Part shown: positions 19,056 through 35,337 of the stretch, piece by piece
Numbering within the stretch: the stretch's first letter is position 1
Layout of the letters: the number at the start of each line of letters is the position of its first letter
From: a virus
Taxonomy: Duplodnaviria; Heunggongvirae; Uroviricota; Caudoviricetes
Direction: 5' to 3' (one strand)
Length of the DNA: 39,543 nt
Virus record (IMG/VR): IMGVR_UViG_2541047868_000004
Notes under the pieces: model-generated
Seen by the model: only the letters and a program-made list of their open reading frames with translations
Database searches by the model: none
What the model was told of the DNA's origin: nothing
Translations under genes and position numbers: made by a program

Positions 19056-19381
19056 TGTTGGCTCCATTTATCCGTTAAAAGGGATATCAGTTAAGTTATC
19101 CCGTGTAGGGTATAAGCCATTGTCGAGACCACTCATTGAATGGCCTCTGCAATAACCGATGTCTTTCCATCAGTCCGCCACCACAAAGAATCTTTTTTGC
19201 CATCAGGCAGGAGGTTCATCTTTCAGTGGCTGCCAGTGTTATTTCCCCACTTACTGGCTTGGGTTGTTTCGTGGTACTGCCGTAACTGGTTGCCCAGAAT
19301 AAATTCCGGTTTCATTATCAAGCCCACCCGTAGATGGGCTTTGTAATGAAGAGCTGTTATGAAAATTGCTCTAAACAAGCA

Positions 19382-19870
19382 TTAATAGCCATCAGAAGTA
19401 AGCGCTACAGATTTCAACCCCTCAATGTCATCCTTGGACAGGGCGAACCATTCACCGTGCTTTCTCTTTGCGGCAAATTTGCGATGAAGCATGTTTTCAG
19501 TTTCTCTTCCGCCAGGGATCAGGCACTCAAGCTTCAAACAGTCTGGTCCAGAGTTGCCAAGCGATTTGATGCGTTGTGGAATGTTGGATGAATACCCAAT
19601 TTTGGTTAGCCCAGTTTTCTTCGATGACAAAACGTATACCTGAGGAGGTTCTTTTCTCTGGTCTTCCATTACACGTCTCATTGTTGCCATAAGTCCGCCG
19701 TGCATCAGCATTTCAACAAAGAACGCTGACCGAACACCTGACGACTTAAGCATGCCAGAAAATTCACTTGCCAATTCCATTAACTCTGCGATGTTTTCAG
19801 GAACTTTTTGGCAGTTATCTTCCTTGTATAAGGAAATCATTCTTTGAAGCTTTTCTTCTAATTGGTTCAT
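19382..19870 (-). CDS. T5orf172 (GIY-YIG-like) domain protein with N-terminal helical domain (moron)
   Basis: 162 aa; C-terminal motifs VYVL…TGLTKIGYS…RIKSL…LHRKF…GEWFAL typical of T5orf172/MUG113; located between lysis genes and terS. Confidence 0.6.
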   Translation of the reverse strand: MNQLEEKLQRMISLYKEDNCQKVPENIAELMELASEFSGMLKSSGVRSAFFVEMLMHGGLMATMRRVMEDQRKEPPQVYVLSSKKTGLTKIGYSSNIPQRIKSLGNSGPDCLKLECLIPGGRETENMLHRKFAAKRKHGEWFALSKDDIEGLKSVALTSDGY

Positions 19871-20015
19871 AGCGTCTTTACCTTTTAGAAAGTGAGCCTG
19901 TTCGCACAGAAAAGCCGCCCCGAGATGGTCGCCACCATATACGGCAGTTCTCAGGCTCAGCTTTCTGAAAGACTCGGGATTGTTACGCGCTGCGATGCGC
20001 GGTTTACTGCAGATG

Positions 20016-20040
20016 TAAAAAAGCCCCGCAAATGCGAGGC
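20016..20040 (-). terminator. Intrinsic terminator-like hairpin downstream of Rz
   Basis: Minus-strand CCTCGCATTTGCGGGG followed by CTTTTTTAC. Confidence 0.45.
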
Positions 20041-20214
20041 TAAATCCTGGTGTTTGTGATGACTGGCTCTTATCTCAACGCAGCCCCTTACCGCGCGCCA
20101 GATGCTCAATATCAAGCATCAGCAATGAGATGTTTAATCTGGATTCACTCCAGAAGTGATCACCATCCTGTCTACAGAGCCAGATGTGAAGGATGATGAG
20201 TAAAATTATCGCTA

Positions 20215-20652
20215 TCATCGAAGGCATTGCGTCCTGATGTATTCCTGCAGATAGTTAACTTGCGCGGTTATCTTGTCGATTCCACTTCGGAGACGGTAAT
20301 AATTGAGTTCAGCATCTGCTGTAAGTCTTGGGCTTTCTCCATCGCCCATGCTGCTGGCTCCGGTCGTTGACTTTGCACAGGTGGCGGCGACTTGCAGGCG
20401 CTTACGCCCAGCAGAAACATCAGCACGGAGACTTTCGATAGTCGCGTTAGCATCAGCAAGCTCCTTTGTGTATCTGGCGTCGAGTTCTGCTACATCACGT
20501 TGACGCTTCTGCATGTCAGCGATAGTGGATGCGGCTTTGTCGCGCTGCTCTTTGTAGGTCATGGCGTTATCACGGTAATGATTAACAGCCCATGACAGAC
20601 AGACGATGATGCAGATAACCAGAGCGGAGATAATCGCGGTTAACCTGCTCAT
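20215..20652 (-). CDS. Rz: Spanin, inner-membrane subunit (Rz)
   Basis: N-terminal TMD, coiled-coil periplasmic domain; ATG 20652 overlaps endolysin stop (ATGA); ORF track extends to 20664. Confidence 0.8.
20268..20459 (-). CDS. Rz1: Spanin, outer-membrane lipoprotein subunit (Rz1), embedded in Rz in another frame
   Basis: Embedded ORF with lipobox LLGVSAC followed by Pro-rich segment ([13 protein letters not shown]); actual start probably the internal Met preceding the lipobox. Confidence 0.6.
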
Positions 20653-21152
20653 TGCTGCCCCCACAAACAGACTTCACGCTCAATATCGCGACGGGTCATC
20701 AGCCCTTTCCATTGCTTACCGCCAGCGTATGTCCAGCGGCGCAGCTGGTCACATGCGCCCTTGATATCGCCCTGGTTGATTTTGCGAAGAAGCGTCGATG
20801 TTCTGAAATTGCCAGCCCCCACGTTGTAGACGAACGAGTAAAGAGCGCCGCGCGTTGTTTCCGGTATATCGACTCTGATGTACGGGTTAATTTGTCTGGC
20901 GACAGTGGCAAGGTCTTTATTCAAGAGTGCTTTGCATTCTGCTTTGGTATACGTTTTACCGAGCATGATGTCTTTTCCTGTATGCCCGTGACATACAGTC
21001 CATACACCAACAATATCTTTGTATGGTATGTAGCTGACACCTTCCAGACCATCGTTACCACTTGGTCCAGTGATTAACACAGATGCTATAGCAATAGCCC
21101 CGCCACTTATCGCCGCTATTACGCTATTTCGTAGTGCCGGTGACATTGCCAT
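20649..21152 (-). CDS. SAR endolysin (T4-lysozyme-like muramidase, phage 21 R-type)
   Basis: 167 aa; N-terminal signal-anchor-release domain ([17 protein letters not shown]) then lysozyme catalytic region; near-identical to P21 R as recalled. Confidence 0.85.
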
Positions 21153-21327
21153 TCAATCTGTCCTCGCGCTCTTTGCGCTTGTAGTACCAGTTGATGCCAA
21201 ATGTGCCGACAGTACAAAGAATACCAATGATGACAGCCCAGTCATTCAGGGAGAGAATGCCACCCATCGCAGTCAGTCCTCCGAAGCTGTAACTGAACCA
21301 TTCTCTGATTTTGTCCATACGGTACAT
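21124..21327 (-). CDS. Pinholin (class II holin, S21-like) with dual-start motif
   Basis: 67 aa; MYRMDK dual start; two TMDs; basic C-terminus; paired with SAR endolysin. Confidence 0.75.
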
Positions 21328-21818
21328 GCTCTACCCCTTCATTGAGGGGATTTGCTCTATTTAATTAGGAATAAGGTCGATTACTGATAGAACAAATCCA
21401 GGCTACTGTGTTTAGTAATCAGATTTGTTCGTGACCGATATGCACGGGCAAAACGGCAGGAGGTTGTTAGCGCAACCTCTTGCTACCCGCTTTCACGAAG
21501 GTCATGTGTAGAAGGCCGCAGCGTAACTATCACCGATGAATTCATGATAGCCAGTGGCTACGGCTCAGTTTGGATTGTGGCGACCGGTGCTGATCTCCGG
21601 TTTGCTGCAACTGCCTACAGCGGGCTACGTGGCCACACCGAATCCAGCGAAAGATTCTTGCCCTTACACATCAGCCTGTGCATTCACCACAACGATAAGA
21701 GCACTGCGCGGCACCTTTCACCAATTCCGCGAGGTCTGCGGGTTCAATGCTCTTACCTGTTGTGCAAATAAAAAAGCCACCGTTGCAACTTAAGAGTCAC
21801 TAACGGCAGCTTACATCT

Positions 21819-22331
21819 TTAAACGGTATGATATTTCATTCTGGCGGCCTCAAAAGCCGCAGCGGCAAGTTCGGCAGTATCATGGTATCCAAGGTTAATA
21901 CACTTTCCAGACGCATTAATTCTTGCTCTCCATTTCCCGTACTTAGCATCCCAAGACACGCCACGGTATCCAGATTTATTATTCTTCTGAATTTTCCTGT
22001 TCTGCATATTTTCGGAATGAGTGACAAGACGAAGATTTGATATCCGGTTATCTGTTCTTACCCTGTTGATGTGATCAATAAAACCATCGGGCATGGTGCC
22101 ATAAACAATCAACCATGCCAGTCTGTGAGCAGGGTATGCTTTACCATTAATCATAATCATTAAATACCCATCAGAATTTATTGATGAGCATTTCTTGAAA
22201 GCAAAACGAGAGTTCCATGTCAAAGTGGTCCTCTCTCTTCCCCGCCTCCATCTCCAGTGAAAGTCGCCTGATGATGGATTGTAATCAACAACAGAAAGCA
22301 CCATTTCTGGCGTTAATTTTATTTCTTTCAT
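21819..22331 (-). CDS. Free-standing HNH endonuclease with AP2 DNA-binding domain
   Basis: 170 aa; HNH motif (AHRLAW…DHINR…DNRISNLRLVTHSEN) and AP2 region (SGYRGVSW…KWRARI); between Q/tR-prime and lysis cassette. Confidence 0.8.
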   Translation of the reverse strand: MKEIKLTPEMVLSVVDYNPSSGDFHWRWRRGRERTTLTWNSRFAFKKCSSINSDGYLMIMINGKAYPAHRLAWLIVYGTMPDGFIDHINRVRTDNRISNLRLVTHSENMQNRKIQKNNKSGYRGVSWDAKYGKWRARINASGKCINLGYHDTAELAAAAFEAARMKYHTV

Positions 22332-22453
22332 CGCTTTACCTTAGGGATAGAGCCTGTTCGCGTAGATATGACAGCCAAGAGCGGAGCGATGTTTCCACCA
22401 CCATATCTCAGGCCCATATCACTAAGACTCTTGTTTTGATTGCACGCGAATGC

Positions 22454-22478
22454 AAAAAAGCCCACAGGAGGTGGGCTT
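22454..22478 (-). terminator. Intrinsic terminator ~50 nt downstream of Q (tR-prime-like, end of short late leader RNA)
   Basis: Minus-strand AAGCCCACCTCCTGTGGGCTTTTTTGC, perfect 6-bp GC stem plus U-run. Confidence 0.7.
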
Positions 22479-22525
22479 GTGATGGTTGCTGAATGCAAAA
22501 GCAGCAGCATATGTGAATATTATGG

Positions 22526-23044
22526 CTAAATGGCTAATTGCATGTCAAGGCTTTTAACAGCAACATGCTTAACTTTCTCAACACGTTTACGCATTTTGAA
22601 AGCATTTTGCATTGGTTGGTACAAAACAAATAACGACGCTTTCAGGATGTCGTCAATTTCGTTTCTACAGGTTGCCAGTGAAGGTTTTCTCCATCCCTCG
22701 CCACCACGTCCACACATCTTGCGTGGCTTTGCAGTCGCGTGATAGTAGGATGCAATTGCTCGCTTAGATGAACCATGAGCGTAGTAGCTGAGGAGGATGC
22801 CAAAGGCTTTCTTGTCAATGTACATGACGGAATCGACGACCTGAGAAATCAACATTCCATCATCATCATTACACATTGGCCTTGTCATAACTCTTCCCGG
22901 CTCTACGCTCTCCATGAACTTCGCTATTACGCTGCTCATGCGCTTTTCCAGACGACCTGAATAAACCCATGCGCCCCACAGCTCAAGCCAGCCATTCAGC
23001 CAATCGTGCTGTTCTTTGGTGAGGTTTAGCTCTCTTATGCTCAT
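22526..23044 (-). CDS. Late-gene antiterminator Q-like protein
   Basis: 172 aa; position after ninH and before late terminator and lysis genes; Cys-containing basic protein; family assignment by position and general resemblance, not verified. Confidence 0.6.
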   Translation of the reverse strand: MSIRELNLTKEQHDWLNGWLELWGAWVYSGRLEKRMSSVIAKFMESVEPGRVMTRPMCNDDDGMLISQVVDSVMYIDKKAFGILLSYYAHGSSKRAIASYYHATAKPRKMCGRGGEGWRKPSLATCRNEIDDILKASLFVLYQPMQNAFKMRKRVEKVKHVAVKSLDMQLAI

Positions 23045-28777: not shown

Positions 28778-29071
28778 TCAGAATTCCATCTGGATTTGTT
28801 CAGAACGCTCGGTTGCCGCCGGGCGTTTTTTATTGGTGAGAATCGAAGCAACTTGTCGTGCCAATCGAGCCATATCGTCGTCAACGACACCCCATTCAAG
28901 AACAGCAAGCAGCATTGAGAACTTTGGAATCCAGTCCCTCTTCCACCTGCTGATCTGCGACTTATCAACTCCCACAGCTTCCGCTGTCTTCTCAGTTCCA
29001 AGCATTGCGATTTTGTTAAGCAACGCACTCTCGATTCGTAGAGCCTCGTTGCGTTTGTTTGCACGAACCAT
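28778..29071 (-). CDS. cII: Transcriptional activator CII (lambda-type)
   Basis: 97 aa from ATG 29071: [24 protein letters not shown]…, essentially lambda CII; ORF-track entry 28778..29131 includes a non-coding extension. Confidence 0.9.
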
Positions 29072-29150
29072 ATGTAAGTATTTCCTTAGATAACAATTGA
29101 TTGAATGCATGCAAATAAATGCATACACCATAGGTGTGGTTTAATTTGAT

Positions 29151-29182
29151 GCCCTTTTTCAGGGCTGGAATGTGTAAGAGCG
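29151..29182 (-). promoter_or_regulatory. nutR (boxA CGCTCTTAC, boxB GCCCTGAAAAAGGGC) between cro and cII
   Basis: Minus-strand sequence matches lambda nutR as recalled. Confidence 0.8.
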
Positions 29183-29190
29183 TTGATAAC

Positions 29191-29421
29191 TTAAGCAGCC
29201 ATTAATTCAGGCCAGATGCTTTCCCAATCAACCGGATGAAGGTCTTTGCGAGTCACTTCACCATTGCTGAACTTCTCAATCAGAACACAAAGTGCTGCGC
29301 CCAATTCATGATTACGGCTAAGTGCTTTCCTCAAATAGCCGATAGAAGTTCCGCACTTGGTGGCAAATTCTCTCTGCTCTTCCAGTGAAAGGGAGTTCAG
29401 ATACAAGCGGAGTTCTTCCAT
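29191..29421 (-). CDS. cro: Cro-like repressor (non-lambda immunity type)
   Basis: 76 aa; transcribed divergently from cI across the operator region; HTH-like segment TKCGTSIGYLRKALS; call is positional. Confidence 0.6.
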   Translation of the reverse strand: MEELRLYLNSLSLEEQREFATKCGTSIGYLRKALSRNHELGAALCVLIEKFSNGEVTRKDLHPVDWESIWPELMAA

Positions 29422-29455
29422 TTGCTATCTCCTTCCCGTTGTTGAATAAGGTGAG

Positions 29456-29511
29456 TTTACCTGCAGGTAAAAAACAAATCAATACCCACAGGTTATTTAC
29501 CGATAGGTAAT
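29456..29511. promoter_or_regulatory. OR operators / divergent pRM-pR region
   Basis: Perfect palindrome TTTACCTGCAGGTAAA (29456..29471) and related ATTTACCGATAGGTAAT (29495..29511) between cro and cI. Confidence 0.65.
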
Positions 29512-29529
29512 CAAAGATAGAATTAAATC

Positions 29530-30216
29530 ATGGATAAATACGAACAAAGACGACTAAGGCTGATAGAGATAAGAGACCGATTCTGTAATGGAAAGGCCTC
29601 AGAGTTGGCTCGTCGAATAGAAAGGGAACCATCATACGTTTCCAGAATGCTGTATCCGGAAGGAAAAAGCGGAAAAAAACGCATTGCTGACGATATGATG
29701 GAACTAATTGAAAAATCTTTTAATCTCCCACGCGGATGGATGGACATGCTTGCAGATAGCAAAGTTGGATCTGCAGACCATCTTGAGTTTGCGGGTAACG
29801 TTCGTGCGGGTTTTGTTCCGGTAATTGGTGAAGCCGTTTTGGGAGTTGATGGCTCAGTGGATATGATTGAATTCAGATCCGGTTGGTTAAGCATCTACAG
29901 TGGCGATAAAGATGCTTACGGTCTGAAGGTTAAGGGTGACAGCATGTGGCCAAGGATTCAGTCAGGAGAATATGTTGTTATTGAACCAAATACGCCAGTA
30001 CATCCAGGTGATGAAGTCTTTGTAAGGACCAAAGATGGTCATAACATGATAAAGATCATGAACAAAACAAGAGACGGAGACTATCAGTTTAGTAGTATAA
30101 ACAGCGATCACCGTCCAATCACTCTTCCTGTTGAAGAAGTTGATAAAATGCATTTTGTTTCAGCTATTGTGAAACACACTAGGTACGTAGACCAGGACGA
30201 TCTGCCAAAATTTTGA
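29530..30216 (+). CDS. cI: CI-type prophage repressor with C-terminal S24 (LexA-like) autopeptidase domain
   Basis: 228 aa; N-terminal DNA-binding region; C-terminal GDSMWP…K motifs of S24 peptidases. Confidence 0.8.
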   Translation: MDKYEQRRLRLIEIRDRFCNGKASELARRIEREPSYVSRMLYPEGKSGKKRIADDMMELIEKSFNLPRGWMDMLADSKVGSADHLEFAGNVRAGFVPVIGEAVLGVDGSVDMIEFRSGWLSIYSGDKDAYGLKVKGDSMWPRIQSGEYVVIEPNTPVHPGDEVFVRTKDGHNMIKIMNKTRDGDYQFSSINSDHRPITLPVEEVDKMHFVSAIVKHTRYVDQDDLPKF

Positions 30217-30230
30217 GGATAAAGCAGCAA

Positions 30231-30527
30231 ATGTTTATACCAGGTATAGTGGTCGCTGTTGTAATCATCTGCTTCATATGGGCAAAGTTATCTCCTGTAA
30301 GCTCTAAGCATACAGCTGAACTCATGAAGAAGAAGCATCTTATACATGAGGCAGAAACGATAATTAAGAAGTTCAAAGGCATGTCATATGACGACATGTC
30401 ATCAGATCAGATTGCTATGTATAAATGCGCCATTGAGCGTCTTGACTACTTAAACGGACTCAAACCCAAACACACCCCGGTAGAATCAAAATTGCCGCAA
30501 TGGCCAAGCAATCCAAATAGCTTCTGA
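30231..30527 (+). CDS. Small single-pass membrane protein co-transcribed with cI (moron)
   Basis: ATG 30231 with SD GAGGA; N-terminal TMD (FIPGIVVAVVIICFIW); followed by a strong terminator; ORF track starts at a TTG (30213). Confidence 0.55.
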   Translation: MFIPGIVVAVVIICFIWAKLSPVSSKHTAELMKKKHLIHEAETIIKKFKGMSYDDMSSDQIAMYKCAIERLDYLNGLKPKHTPVESKLPQWPSNPNSF

Positions 30528-30537
30528 CATCTCCTTT

Positions 30538-30560
30538 CAGCCCGCAAAGCGGGCTTTTTT
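30538..30560 (+). terminator. Intrinsic terminator after the cI operon
   Basis: AGCCCGCAAAGCGGGCT followed by TTTTTT. Confidence 0.8.
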
Positions 30561-30580
30561 ATATCAATCCAAAAAATTAA

Positions 30581-30661
30581 TTACCTGAAAATTCAAACAG
30601 GTAAACTCTCACACCAATTTTATTTACCTGCAGGTATAGACAACAGTTTTACCTGTAGGTA
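30581..30661. promoter_or_regulatory. OL operators / pL region
   Basis: Operator-like repeats TTTACCTGCAGGTA (30623..30636) and TTTACCTGTAGGTA (30648..30661), same consensus as OR; TTACCTG…CAGGTAA at 30581..30607. Confidence 0.6.
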
Positions 30662-30705
30662 TATTTTAAGCCATCAGCAGGACGCACTAACCACCATGAA
30701 GGTGA

Positions 30706-30736
30706 TGCTCTTAAAAATTAAGCCCTGAAGAAGGGC
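30706..30736 (+). promoter_or_regulatory. nutL (boxA-like TGCTCTTAA, boxB GCCCTGAAGAAGGGC)
   Basis: Matches lambda nutL as recalled; upstream of N. Confidence 0.8.
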
Positions 30737-30893
30737 AGCATTCAAAGCAGAAGGCTTTGGTGTGTGTGATACGAAACGAAGCATTGGCCGGAAGTGCGAA
30801 TCCGGATTAGCTGCCAATGTGCCATTGCGGGGTGTTTTCGTTCAGGACTACGACTCCCACACACAACCAAAGCTAACTGACAGGAGAATCCAG

Positions 30894-31791
<898 letters not shown>

Positions 31792-31914
31792 TTAAAAGAC
31801 AGGCATACTAATAAACACTGCACTGTGTATTCATTCCAACGAGTGAATACACGGAGCAATGTCGCTCGTAACTAAACAGGAGCCGACTTGTTCTGATTAT
31901 TGGAAATCTTCTTT

Positions 31915-31941
31915 GCCCTCTAATGTGAGGGCGATTTTTTT
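31915..31941 (+). terminator. Intrinsic terminator (tL1-like) in early-left operon
   Basis: GCCCTCTAATGTGAGGGC followed by GATTTTTTT. Confidence 0.75.
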
Positions 31942-31953
31942 GACGGAGGAATT

Positions 31954-32370
31954 ATGGAAATTGCAGATATTCTGGTTAATCCAGATAATTACGACCAATT
32001 CAATATCTCTACTCAATCAGTTGATTTGGGATGTGCAACTGTCAGCGCATGGCTACTTAATGGTAAACAGTTGGATAAATGCCTTGATGCACATATGACG
32101 GTTAACAGCTTCCTTGCAGAAAAAACACACTGGCAAGATGCAGGAGGGAAATATGCTGGATGGCTTGAAAGCATGGGATTTGAATATCAATCTGATGAAG
32201 GTTGGTGGAGCCTTATAGCTGTAACTCCTGAGACAATAGAATGCTTCGTTAAATACTCAAACGACGATGACTATAAACACCAGGTAGACTCTGCGATAGA
32301 AAGATATAAAAGAAAATCATTCAACCACGAAATATCATCAGTTCTTGATTTCATAGAAGTCTTCAAATAA
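31954..32370 (+). CDS. Hypothetical acidic early protein
   Basis: 138 aa; SD GGAGGA upstream; Asp/Glu-rich; first plus-strand gene after tL1-like terminator. Confidence 0.55.
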   Translation: MEIADILVNPDNYDQFNISTQSVDLGCATVSAWLLNGKQLDKCLDAHMTVNSFLAEKTHWQDAGGKYAGWLESMGFEYQSDEGWWSLIAVTPETIECFVKYSNDDDYKHQVDSAIERYKRKSFNHEISSVLDFIEVFK

Positions 32371-32453
32371 GCCGCCAAGCGCGGCTTTACCGCACACCAA
32401 TAACGCTTCACTTGAGGCGTTTTCGTTATGCAATCAAACAGAAGGAGCATCCT

Positions 32454-32624
32454 ATGCAACAGTTCGCTATTGCAGGGGCGGCATCGGTTCGCCCTTTCAA
32501 CCCAATTTTATCGGTGCAGCATTCACGAAAAAATATTTTAACCGGAGCAGACTTTAAACAACCTCGCGTTAAGAGCTTGCTGGATCGTCTTGTTGAGTTT
32601 CTGAATCAAAAGGTACATCCATGA
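32454..32624 (+). CDS. Small hypothetical early protein
   Basis: ORF 32412..32624; likely start ATG 32454 (MQQFAIAG…) with AAGGAG upstream. Confidence 0.4.
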   Translation: MQQFAIAGAASVRPFNPILSVQHSRKNILTGADFKQPRVKSLLDRLVEFLNQKVHP

Positions 32625-32785
32625 AAAAACCAACTTACGAGGAACTGGAAGAAGCCCTGAAAGAGCTTAGAAGAATGGCTTTCGCCAGACGCACTAACTC
32701 TCACAACTGCGGCCCATTTCAGTACTCTGATTTATGCGAGGACATCATTGAGGTAACTCAACTGATTAAGGTCGTTAAGCAATGA
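32621..32785 (+). CDS. Small hypothetical early protein
   Basis: 54-aa ORF (MKKPTYEELEEALKELRRMAF…) translated by hand; ATGA coupling with upstream gene. Confidence 0.35.
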   Translation: MKKPTYEELEEALKELRRMAFARRTNSHNCGPFQYSDLCEDIIEVTQLIKVVKQ

Positions 32786-32866
32786 GCGTTGCGGATACAT
32801 GGTCAGACGAAGAATTCATTCGTCAGATGAACAAAATGCTCAATCAGCACAAAGAACAGGAGAAAG

Positions 32867-33178
32867 ATGATGATTCTGACTCTGAATGATAAGCGTGAAA
32901 TATCGCAAATAATCGCAAGTTTTACCGATGATGATTACGAACGAATCAACAGTGAAGTTGATCGTCTCTGCAAACGTTGCGACCCAATAAGCGAAATGCT
33001 TCGCTCATATAAACCAGATGAACACACTAAGGACGCTATCGACTGGCTGGAAGATGATGACTGTAACTATCAGGAAAAAGCCGCTGAATGGTTCTGGGAT
33101 GCAATAACCGAAAGAGTTAAGGCTGAATATGCCTTCGCAATATTCAAACGCAGACACATTTATGGAGAAGCAGCATGA
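32867..33178 (+). CDS. Hypothetical early protein upstream of recT
   Basis: 103 aa; acidic; ATGA coupling to recT. Confidence 0.5.
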   Translation: MMILTLNDKREISQIIASFTDDDYERINSEVDRLCKRCDPISEMLRSYKPDEHTKDAIDWLEDDDCNYQEKAAEWFWDAITERVKAEYAFAIFKRRHIYGEAA

Positions 33179-34086
33179 GCAATATCGTTGAATTCGTTAA
33201 ACAGCAGGAGCAGTTATTCTGCGGAGCATTGACTGAACAGACGGTGACATGGGCTAAGGAAAGCCAGTTTGCAATTCAGTATTTCCAGAAAAATGATTGC
33301 CTGGCTAAAACAGCACTGGCAAATCCAACCAGTGCACAGAACGCCATCATCAATGTTGCGGCGATCGGCATCACCTTAAACCCGGCCAGCAAACTGGCTT
33401 ATCTGGTTCCGCGCGACGGCATGGTTTGCCTTGATATCAGTTATATGGGATTGCTCCATATTGCAATGGAGTCTGGTGTTATCTCATGGGGTCAGGCAAA
33501 ACTTGTTCATGCTAACGATACCTATGAGTCAAACGGGCTTGATAAAGCACCAACCCATAAATACAACGCCTTCGGTGATCGTGGTGATATCGTTGGCGTT
33601 TACTGCACAGTTAAGACGCCGGCAGGTGATTATCTAACGGAAGAGATGAGTCTGGCTGAAATTGAGGCTGTAAGGAAAACAAGCAAGGCGGCATTCAGCG
33701 ATAAAGGACCATGGGTAAATCACTGGAATGAGATGGCGCGAAAGACGGTCGTAAAGCGTGCAAGCAAGTATTGGCCTAAGGCATCACGTCTTGATAGTGC
33801 TATTCACGTACTAAACGAAGAAGAAGGTGTGTGGACTGAACCAGTTATGCCGCACAAATCAGAGGAAGATATCCGCGAAGATGAACGGAAACGCCAGCAG
33901 GAAATAATGGATAAAGCACAACTTCTTTGCGATGAAATGGCTCAGGCAGAAAACATGGACGATTTGAAGCGATATTTTGCAGAAGCATATCGCCTGACAT
34001 CTGGAATGAAATTGCAGCAGAACGTACAAGCCATTTACGCAGAATGCAAAGCGAAACTGGAGGTTGCCAGTGAGCAAACTATATGA
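33175..34086 (+). CDS. recT: RecT-family single-strand annealing protein
   Basis: 303 aa; motif …GPWVNHWNEMARKTVVKRASKYWP… resembles E. coli RecT (…GPWVTHWEEMAKKTAIRRLFKYLP…). Confidence 0.8.
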   Translation: MSNIVEFVKQQEQLFCGALTEQTVTWAKESQFAIQYFQKNDCLAKTALANPTSAQNAIINVAAIGITLNPASKLAYLVPRDGMVCLDISYMGLLHIAMESGVISWGQAKLVHANDTYESNGLDKAPTHKYNAFGDRGDIVGVYCTVKTPAGDYLTEEMSLAEIEAVRKTSKAAFSDKGPWVNHWNEMARKTVVKRASKYWPKASRLDSAIHVLNEEEGVWTEPVMPHKSEEDIREDERKRQQEIMDKAQLLCDEMAQAENMDDLKRYFAEAYRLTSGMKLQQNVQAIYAECKAKLEVASEQTI

Positions 34087-34552
34087 AATTGCCAATGAAT
34101 ACGCAAAATTGATGGATTCAGATTTAGAACCAGAGATGATTGCTGACACAATAGAAGGCATGGAAGGAGAATTTACCGATAAAATAGAGCAACTTCTTTC
34201 CATTATTAAAAATGAATCTGGTTATGCCGAACGCCTCAAGGAAGAGGCAAAGTCACTGAATGAGCGAGCCGCAGTAATTCAAAATAAGATTGACAGCATC
34301 AAATCATATATAGCGTCATCGCTTGAAATGGTTGGCAAGAAAAATATTCGAGCAGGTATTCACCAGGTAACAATCCGCAAACCGTCAGAAACTGTAGAAA
34401 TCATCGACTCAAGCGCCCTTCCTCCTGAATACGTTGAGTTTGAAACGACAATTAAAGCCGACAAACTGGCAATCAAACACCAACTAAAAGCAGGAATAAA
34501 TATCCCCGGCGCTCAACTCAAAGTTGGGAAACCTTCACTTCTTATCAAATAA
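34070..34552 (+). CDS. Gp157-like protein (recombination-module associated), function uncertain
   Basis: ~160 aa; probable GTG start 34070 with GGAGG upstream; coiled-coil; immediately after recT. Confidence 0.45.
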   Translation: MSKLYEIANEYAKLMDSDLEPEMIADTIEGMEGEFTDKIEQLLSIIKNESGYAERLKEEAKSLNERAAVIQNKIDSIKSYIASSLEMVGKKNIRAGIHQVTIRKPSETVEIIDSSALPPEYVEFETTIKADKLAIKHQLKAGINIPGAQLKVGKPSLLIK

Positions 34553-34563
34553 CGGTATCGCCT

Positions 34564-34878
34564 ATGAAAAAGACTCCATGGGAGAAATGGGAAGTCGATT
34601 TCTTGCGCGAAGTAGCGGCGACAATGCCAGTTGAAGTTATCGCTGAAAAACTGGAAAGGACTGAAAAAGCAGTAATGGCGAAAGCAACAAGGATTGGCGC
34701 TGACATTGTTAGCCGACTTCGTGGAAGACGCTGGACAAGAGCCGAAGTATCACTTTTCGGTAAGTTCTCCGCAGAAGAAATAGCAATTGCAACCTGCCGC
34801 TCAATTTATTCAGTAAGAGCTATGCGATACAAGCTAAAAAAACTCGATGAAGAAAGAGAAGGCATACGAATAAATTAA
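34564..34878 (+). CDS. Hypothetical early protein
   Basis: 104-aa basic ORF in early-left operon. Confidence 0.45.
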   Translation: MKKTPWEKWEVDFLREVAATMPVEVIAEKLERTEKAVMAKATRIGADIVSRLRGRRWTRAEVSLFGKFSAEEIAIATCRSIYSVRAMRYKLKKLDEEREGIRIN

Positions 34879-34894
34879 CATGGAGTAATTAACA

Positions 34895-35176
34895 ATGAAG
34901 CTAAACATCGACCTAGGCAAATACGTTATTACCGGAACAAAACACGATCTGATTCTTAGTGAAATAGGAGTTATCAAAGAAGGTGATAATGCAGGGAAAG
35001 AAACATTAAGTCGTATCGGTTATTACAGCAAGTTTGAGCATCTGGTAAAAGAGTTATGCAACCGTGAAATCCTGTTATCTCAGGCGCAGACGCTACAGGA
35101 TATTCAGCAGCATATCGAGACTTTAGGTGTATCACTTAGCATGGCTATTGACCAGTTCGTGGAGAGTAAATCATGA
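34895..35176 (+). CDS. Hypothetical early protein
   Basis: 93-aa ORF with GGAG upstream. Confidence 0.45.
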
Positions 35177-35337
35177 GAGGACTTGCATACAATCCCGGCA
35201 TTCTTCCGGCAGAAATGATTATTCGCCAGCGCGTAAAGCCAATGCCATCGAGAGAGGAATTGCTTAAGAGAAATTCTTTTCCGTCAGTGAATCAAAACAA
35301 ATATCTGAATGCGATGTGGTGGAGTGGAAAGAAATGA
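35173..35337 (+). CDS. Small hypothetical early protein
   Basis: 54-aa ORF ([20 protein letters not shown]…) with GGAG upstream and ATGA coupling. Confidence 0.35.

Follow-up and report, generated by a model that had tools for sequence, protein, structure and literature searches.

Two leaders of a P22-like prophage belong to a family of structured RNAs that hold the Shine-Dalgarno sequence in a base helix

Background

The closest described counterpart of the element studied here is P22F, an 89-nt small noncoding RNA (sncRNA) of phage P22 that came to light as one of ten P22 small RNAs in small RNA sequencing (sRNA-seq) of P22 infection, was validated by reverse transcription PCR (RT-PCR), has its 3' end 6 nt from the start of the rha gene, and was described as having 'no known function' (Naaz et al., Noncoding RNA 2026, PMC13397905). 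In P22, the structured core of this RNA builds up as a stable small species (PMC13397905). In this study we analyze a viral DNA of 39,543 nucleotides (IMG/VR record IMGVR_UViG_2541047868_000004; "the window" below is this whole stretch), a lambdoid/P22-like prophage whose late genes are read from the - strand and in which a T5orf172 gene and an HNH-AP2 gene each follow a leader. We find that these stretches, leader 1 and leader 2 respectively, are diverged homologous copies of one RNA family with a conserved fold, which we call P22F-like after its sole experimentally detected member. P22F itself is a subtype-F member located between the post-Rz terminator and rha, with its 89 nt spanning P1b of the fold to the Shine-Dalgarno (SD) sequence, and covariance model (CM) R1 of the family gives the P22 locus 108 bits; the window copies belong to subtypes A and B. 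Neither a family nor a fold, covariation, cargo swapping or second copies appears in the paper on P22F.

Henthorn and Friedman are said to have put forward in 1995 the hypothesis that the region upstream of rha is regulated by integration host factor (IHF). The rha genes of phi80 and P22 block phage growth in IHF-deficient hosts (PMC4936722). The sole match in the window to the exact IHF consensus, WATCARNNNNTTR, is at 32014-32026, and there is none in either leader.

A second system with points of likeness is IsrK-orf45-anrP of Gifsy-1, in which an antirepressor-like gene is transcribed but translationally silent, its ribosome-binding site (RBS) being masked by RNA structure, and is turned on through alternative structures (Hershko-Shalev et al. 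2016, PMC4825925). It resembles leader 2 in its Q-like gene, late-type promoter, terminator, read-through RNA and antirepressor-like gene, but IsrK works via a trans-acting short isoform and an upstream open reading frame (ORF), ORF45, neither of which is evident in the window. Homology of the two was considered and rejected: the window holds no match to Rfam isrK (RF01394), and CM R1, run with filters off over Gifsy-1 29000-35200, found nothing at 34077-34348. Elsewhere in Gifsy-1 (L142), a stretch of the - strand downstream of anrP (33272-33380) gives a weak partial match to the model (17 bits, E 0.02) and, with a U-run, a GCG..CGC hairpin and AGAGCCUUUCAGAAG, resembles the 5' half of a leader; it may be a truncated leader remnant. 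We take isrJ to lie near this stretch. The microRNA-size RNA 24B_1 of phage 24B was also considered; its locus, between lom and vb_24B_43, is a different one, and the RNA is unrelated.

Hairpins that sequester the RBS of free-standing and intron homing-endonuclease genes of T4 (mobE, I-TevI) were reportedly described by Gibb and Edgell, and there too a hairpin covering the SD holds down the translation of accessory nuclease genes that lie in strongly transcribed operons. Each of the T4 hairpins is short and specific to its gene, and late promoters inside the hairpins relieve them, whereas the P22F-like leader is large, has several helices, is common to unrelated downstream genes (its cargos) and has no internal promoter that we found. 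The morons of lambdoid phages, reportedly the subject of work by Juhala et al. in 2000 and by Hendrix, are likewise accessory genes inserted among conserved late genes, with terminators on either side, and the HNH cassette of the window is a clean insertion relative to phage HK75. Morons are defined by a promoter of their own and by expression from the prophage; to our knowledge, they have not been described as having a common structured leader. RNA thermometers of the FourU type and the alternative structures of lambda cIII have in common with the P22F-like element a weak closing helix, in which U-rich sequence is paired to the SD, and the possibility of two conformations, but the P22F-like element is much larger and has conserved inner helices. 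A structured leader that masks the SD is a known kind of element; the P22F-like family, its portability across cargos and genomic slots and its pairing with terminators are uncatalogued.

Results and discussion

The two leaders of the window are homologous

Leader 1 (subtype A) occupies 19871..20006 and leader 2 (subtype B) 22332..22461, both on the - strand. Their local alignment score of 29 was reached by none of 2000 dinucleotide shuffles (15.2 +/- 2.2), and over the whole window, on both strands, leader 1 is the best non-self match to leader 2. A resemblance had been described in the initial annotation as a conserved leader of ~70 bp, shared by two unrelated genes of the T5orf172 and HNH-AP2 types and lying in each case downstream of an intrinsic terminator. 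We find the - strand start codons at 19870 and 22331 as claimed there, the gene identities are borne out by Pfam, hairpins followed by T-runs are present at 20041..20022 and 22478..22458, and the two blocks on which the resemblance had been based occur in both copies (GAGCCTGTTCGC at 19894-19905 and 22350-22361; CCACCATAT at 19932-19940 and 22398-22406), together with a further block, GCCTGAGA, and a small upstream hairpin. The length had been set too short, the homologous element being ~135-145 nt, with CM R1 matches that extend over 20006..19862 and 22461..22323.

That the likeness is due to chance or to a generic SD context can be practically dismissed, and we consider this explanation already refuted: the shared blocks are short, but the alignment score stands clear of all 2000 shuffles (0/2000), and the family has hundreds of members, with CM E-values of 1e-12 to 1e-26. 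Searching the window with R1 returned exactly two matches, leader 1 (142 bits, E 8e-27) and leader 2 (72.6 bits, E 8e-13), which are partly matches by construction, both sequences having sat in the training alignment of the model. Independent support for their membership comes from links found by nhmmer and blastn. Blast walks with diverged copies join the two leaders through intermediates that fall into four groups, namely Hafnia Pocitis76 and Erwinia Midgardsormr38; Klebsiella Kp4856; HK97, HK022, the mEp phages and phiEt88; and P22, ES18, BTP1 and Klebsiella RothD. Rfam 15 has no gathering-level match in the window, and the two matches that it gives in 19800-22600 are at chance level (E >1).

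A conserved fold places the Shine-Dalgarno sequence in its base helix

The fold consists of a small GC hairpin, P0, and after it one long helix with interruptions (P1-P2-P3-P4-P5), which has a bulge, GUGCGAA, on its 3' side and the SD as part of its base. In leader 1, P0 is formed by 20000-19997 and 19990-19987, and the long helix by a 5' strand at 19972-19952 and a 3' strand at 19900-19881, with the SD (AAAGG, 19885-19881) at its base; the corresponding arms of leader 2 are 22427-22409 and 22356-22339, the latter including the SD UAAGG at 22343-22339 (all on the - strand). The structure was derived by hand from leader 1 and, together with the CM, solved the register problem between subtypes.

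Three alignments support the pairing. With a structure-blind MAFFT alignment of 25 diverse members, 78.7% of cells are paired, as opposed to 30-48% in slid controls, and 24 of the 36 pairs show compensatory changes; the observed values were reached by 0/500 shuffles on three measures and by 2/500 and 14/500 on the others. Realignment of 42 distinct sequences with CM R1, a set related to the training data, gives 89.4% paired cells against 33-46% in slid controls, 28 of 36 compensatory pairs, and 0/500 shuffles on all five measures. The held-out genome set, comprising 29 matches in 25 loci, has 93.7% of cells paired (slid controls 34-47%), no shuffle among 500 reaching the observed values, and compensatory changes in 23 of the 36 pairs compared to 3-6 in the slid controls. 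This last set goes back to a pattern scan in which each species was represented by a single genome; true and chance matches came back together, and R1 chose from them the 29 matches and none of the chance hits in other phyla. None of the 25 loci was in training; 22 are from Enterobacterales, including Pantoea, Yersinia, Rahnella, Providencia, Buttiauxella, Shimwellia and Pluralibacter, and the other three are short contigs labelled as metagenome-assembled genomes (MAGs) of other taxa. Four of the loci had diverged second copies that had not been selected.

G-U pairs outnumber A-C mismatches by 70 to 34, an excess that favours an RNA read from the gene strand. Folding energy alone is not evidence in this case, the single-sequence z-scores of the two window leaders being weak (-1.75 and -1.73), and when RNAalifold was given the raw MAFFT alignment, no helices other than P0 and P3 came out, since the subtypes shift register. 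Loops and bulges show strong conservation of primary sequence; the loops differ greatly between subtypes. Weak profile matches on the opposite strand, seen at the leader regions of three loci (L002, L126 and L128) and at 19882-19971 (+) of the window, arise because the long helix is near-palindromic and do not indicate a second element.

The outermost helix, P1, pairs a U-rich anti-SD strand (CUUU or CUUAG) with the SD region (AAAGG or CUAAGG), which lies a short way 5' of the cargo ATG. The partners vary between copies, being UCUUU/AAAGG in leader 1, CUUAG/CUAAG in leader 2, CUUUC/GAAAG in Kp4856, CUUUU/AAAAG in HK97 and CUA/UAG in Providencia and one Yersinia copy, and the P1 columns 46-50/144-148 covary (UA to CG or AU). 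The median predicted probability that the SD is unpaired is 0.26, compared to 0.45 when the upstream part is shuffled. Both window leaders are able to fold with the SD paired. An SD-open fold, in which a nearly invariant upstream GAGYC pairs with the same 3' arm, AGGCUC, is isoenergetic with the SD-paired fold in leader 2 (-39.8 kcal/mol), and in leader 1 the two differ by 2.2 kcal/mol. Both partners of this open pairing are changed in subtype F, to GAACC and GGUUC, a change that was scored by eye and represents one evolutionary event. The fold may switch between the two states, which we offer as a hypothesis.

Distribution of the family and its cargo genes

Seven or more sequence subtypes (A to G) can be told apart in the P22F-like family, which occurs in P22, phi80, HK97, HK022, HK620, ES18, Shiga toxin (Stx) phages and prophages across the Enterobacterales. 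Sequences 80-99% identical to leader 1 are present in ~150 phage records, from P22-like Salmonella and E. coli phages, phi80, HK620, HK106, epsilon34 and Stx1/2 phages to phages of Klebsiella, Enterobacter, Pantoea and Providencia, and in >100 IMG/VR contigs. Leader 2 is less common: HK629 and the PhiR12 phages have an identical copy, and among 5426 complete E. coli genomes it is present in 40, in each case at >=99% identity. The search of other P22-like and lambdoid genomes that the initial annotation had proposed finds the leader widely, in front of many types of gene.

Every copy of the family ends a few bases (within ~10 nt) before the ATG of genes that differ from one copy to the next. 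The cargo proteins have the Pfam domains Phage_pRha (with ORF11CD3), several types of KilA-N (with P63C), ANT, P22_AR_N, T5orf172/MUG113 and HNH_3 with AP2, and one has no Pfam match. Most of these domains belong to the shuffled KilA-N/Bro-N/Rha/T5orf172 set of regulators reportedly described by Iyer, Koonin and Aravind (2002). Klebsiella phage RothD has another HNH_3+AP2 gene, independent of that in the window, behind a leader of subtype F. Among the sampled loci, non-nuclease cargos stand behind a clear majority of the classified copies, so that the proposed link to nucleases did not hold up: most copies precede Rha, KilA-N, ANT or P22_AR_N genes, and HNH-AP2 and T5orf172 genes form a minority.

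Three of the genome contigs with a leader (L209, L220 and L170) come from MAGs binned as Bacillota, Collinsella and Cellvibrionaceae. Their leaders are near-canonical enterobacterial-phage leaders scoring 126-134 bits, and the contigs are probably mis-binned phage contigs.

Cassette boundaries and genomic slots

In the order of the late strand (all features on - unless noted), the Q gene (23044..22526) comes first, and its end overlaps the late promoter pR' (22519..22548, TTGACA-18-CATAAT), which agrees with the consensus at 11 of 12 positions and is identical to the sequence annotated as pR' in HK75. Phages HK75 and SPN9CC have the same Q gene and pR' as the window. Relative to both, pairwise blastn and the junction sequences define an insertion of ~703 bp at 21815..22518, whose junctions are CATAAT|, directly behind the -10 hexamer of pR', and |GTAAGCTGCC; HK629 has an insertion like that of the window. 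Besides leader 2 and the HNH_3 + AP2 gene (22331..21819; 170 aa; Pfam 2e-18 and 1.6e-8), the insert brings an initial transcribed region and a terminator, both new. The terminator, a hairpin and T-run at 22478..22458 (outer bounds to 22452) directly 5' of leader 2, lies ~40 nt downstream of the pR' -10, is annotated as a terminator in HK629, and acts as a new tR' brought by the insertion. No leader is present at the insertion point in HK75 or SPN9CC, and leader 2, being inside the insert, is part of the inserted unit and not its target.

The ancestral tR' (21770..21811) is now downstream of the HNH-AP2 gene. It is 100% identical over 50 nt to a stretch just after pR' in SPN9CC (L144 409-458) that ends one base into an annotated tRNA-Asn, and is homologous to the annotated Tr' of HK75. 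The 50-nt match between HNH and holin is this ancestral tR', and the idea of a tRNA remnant there was rejected. The ~490 nt from the HNH stop codon to the holin start (21328-21818) hold no long - strand ORF and are 85% identical to the tR'-holin spacer of HK75; no tRNA genes or remnants were found between HNH and holin, where SPN9CC has tRNA-Asn and tRNA-Thr. A -10-like TATGCT of the window is as far from pR' as TAAGCT is in HK75, which may leave Q loading intact.

Holin, lysozyme and Rz follow the HNH-AP2 gene, and between the end of Rz (20215) and leader 1 lies a terminator with an 8-bp stem (6 GC) and a T-run (20041..20022, outer bound 20016), directly 5' of the leader; a terminator is annotated at the homologous position in HK106, epsilon34, phi80 and ES18. 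Leader 1 is followed by the T5orf172/MUG113 gene (19870..19382; GIY-YIG-like; 162 aa; Pfam 6e-15 and 2.8e-10) and this in turn by the terminase genes. Among phages with different cargos in this post-Rz slot, sequence identity runs through the leader up to the ATG, then breaks, and resumes 30-100 nt past the stop codon. The segment in which it resumes (19140..19283) is conserved and non-coding, and is 94.5% identical to nt 59-204 of the P22 sncRNA 'P22G'. The queried 3' flank region, 19390..19060, is matched by 77 loci with many types of cargo, and the T5orf172 gene is one among many alternative occupants of its slot. With two conserved flanks around the slot, the layout fits replacement of ORFs by homologous recombination. 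The suggestion of a cassette boundary in the initial annotation is upheld by this break at the ATG and by the second conserved flank 3' of the slot. Boundaries are thus mapped in two places, as insertion junctions for the HNH cassette and as homology breakpoints for the post-Rz slot.

All copies of the family have the sense orientation and belong to the late operon, where they occupy four slots: (i) between Q/pR'/tR' and holin, as for the HNH gene of the window, HK629 and RothD; (ii) between R and Rz, before the P22_AR_N antirepressor of Stx2 phages; (iii) between Rz and the terminase region, the commonest slot; and (iv) among the tail genes, before a KilA-N gene, in ES18-like Salmonella phages and some Klebsiella phages. 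Several phages, like the window, hold two copies of different subtypes. A terminator-like hairpin with a T-run lies within 75 nt (<=75) upstream of 140 of the 146 testable copies, although many copies are near-identical, and the counts of terminators, like those of cargos, are counts of non-independent events.

A proposed role in cis and the alternatives to it

We propose, with a probability of about 0.6, that both stretches belong to one family of structured 5' leader RNAs that act in cis, throttling translation of a potentially toxic cargo in the late transcript. The RBS lies in the base of a conserved helix, and we infer the throttling. The module is transcribed as part of the Q-antiterminated late operon, where an RBS held in the helix base would limit the output of DNA-binding regulators, antirepressors or nucleases, all potentially toxic, and the alternative AGGCUC/GAGYC pairing could open it. 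The near-identical leader and the conserved 3' flank, whose breakpoints are in part mapped above, probably act as boundaries for homologous recombination; the leader being near-identical across phages, unrelated cargo ORFs would be swapped precisely at the start codon. The structured core might also persist as a stable processing product in general, beyond P22. Of the functions offered in the initial annotation, a shared module of regulatory character stands, as a covarying RNA fold that holds the SD, and the tie to nucleases falls away.

Several observations weigh against this proposal. SD masking is no better than in shuffled controls in leader 2 (0.46) and P22 (0.41), and SD occlusion is moderate because the SD sits in weak terminal pairs. 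The open pairing comes down to a near-invariant GAG and a single compensatory lineage (GAA/UUC, subtype F), and a formal column count of this distal helix failed through a one-column register shift in subtype F. Conservation of P3-P5 and of the GUGCGAA bulge goes beyond the needs of simple SD masking and points to a ligand, a protein or a processing step. To these we add the non-independence of the terminator and cargo counts noted above.

A bolder version, which we hold only tentatively and think rather unlikely, makes the leader a two-state riboregulator and portable 'expression adaptor', by which interchangeable antirepressor-like and nuclease cargos are gated through one late-operon signal. 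The input would come from a factor of phage or host that binds the conserved inner helices and the purine bulge, or from their response to temperature or processing, and would flip the 3' arm AGGCUC between its proximal partner, with the SD masked, and the conserved distal GAGYC, with the SD free. If true, such gating could account for the old observation that rha is lethal to phage in IHF-deficient hosts.

An RNA that is mainly a trans-acting small RNA of the P22F kind, processed or terminated just before the cargo start and regulating host or phage targets, would make the position before the cargo secondary. P22F indeed accumulates as a discrete 89-nt species in infected cells and in outer membrane vesicles, as RT-PCR with inner and outer primers supports (PMC13397905), and the primary sequence of loops and bulges is strongly conserved; but in every copy the fold takes in the SD and the element borders directly on the start of an ORF, its loops differ so greatly between subtypes that a seed would not be preserved, and no promoter of its own was detected. 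As the main role we consider this unlikely, and it is in any case compatible with action in cis rather than exclusive of it. The conserved loci might alternatively be linkers at the DNA level, recently spread mosaic boundaries without RNA function, kept as crossover sites for cargos. Near-100% identity across Salmonella, E. coli and Klebsiella phages, the sharp break at the ATG and the conserved 3' flank shared by loci with different cargos are what such a linker would give. It is nevertheless improbable when diverged subtypes keep their helices by compensatory changes on both sides, G-U pairs exceed A-C mismatches on the sense strand, and the element keeps its place and direction with respect to the SD and ATG in each of the four genomic slots.

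Two further readings concern the cargo more directly. A promoter within the leader, giving autonomous expression from the prophage as in a classical moron, would be insulated by the upstream terminator, and the annotators of HK629 placed a 'putative pR'' hexamer in the leader; we regard it as very improbable, in that no sigma-70-like site was found on the - strand of either leader by a scan that covers sigma-70-type consensus promoters, and the real pR' (22548..22519, 11/12 consensus, so annotated in HK75) is upstream. The term moron, used for both genes in the initial annotation, fits loosely: the HNH cassette is an insertion relative to collinear relatives, and a scan for consensus-like promoters gave no sigma-70 site in either leader. 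That the endonuclease-like HNH-AP2 and T5orf172 proteins encoded downstream use the leader for homing or recognize its sequence is hardly credible. Two nuclease-family cargos in one window, the independent HNH_3+AP2 gene of RothD and a highly conserved stretch of DNA that would suit as a target speak for it, but non-nuclease cargos predominate, the covariation indicates selection on RNA pairing, and the leader of the HNH case is inside the insert of ~703 bp relative to HK75/SPN9CC, with the pR' initial transcribed region as the insertion point. An upstream ORF (ATGGTGG...) was rejected as well, its ATG being missing in phi80, HK620, HK106 and subtypes C to G, and the conserved block being in different frames in the two window copies.

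The P22F-like family would add to P22, phi80, HK97, HK022, ES18 and the Stx phages a covariation-supported cis-regulatory RNA that is missing from Rfam, and gives the orphan sncRNA P22F a functional hypothesis. It would explain both the identical upstream sequences and the start-codon-precise swapping among Rha, KilA-N, ANT, T5orf172 and HNH-AP2 genes. Compensatory mutations in P1/P2 offer a handle on how toxic antirepressor-like genes, including ant and rha of Stx phages, may be restrained during late transcription.

Annotations of related phages

The family also flags start codons that appear misannotated and a pR' annotation that appears misplaced. The hexamer annotated as putative pR' in HK629 (L001 2595-2600, corresponding to window ~22361-22366) falls within leader 2, and the feature is probably misplaced. 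The annotated rha starts of P22 (L138, NC_002371, 1526-2131) and phi80 (L126, 1612-2166) fall within the structured leader, and the ATG that follows the conserved SD is ~40-70 nt downstream of them; both coding sequences are probably over-extended. In the Stx2a phage Stx2_EC3283 (L127), leaders of different subtypes occur 1.3 kb apart at 149-294 and 1515-1661, one before a P22_AR_N antirepressor gene upstream of Rz and the other after Rz, before a Rha gene. By its position after R, although R itself was not identified in L127, the P22_AR_N gene appears to be the Stx-phage gene 'd_ant'/ant.

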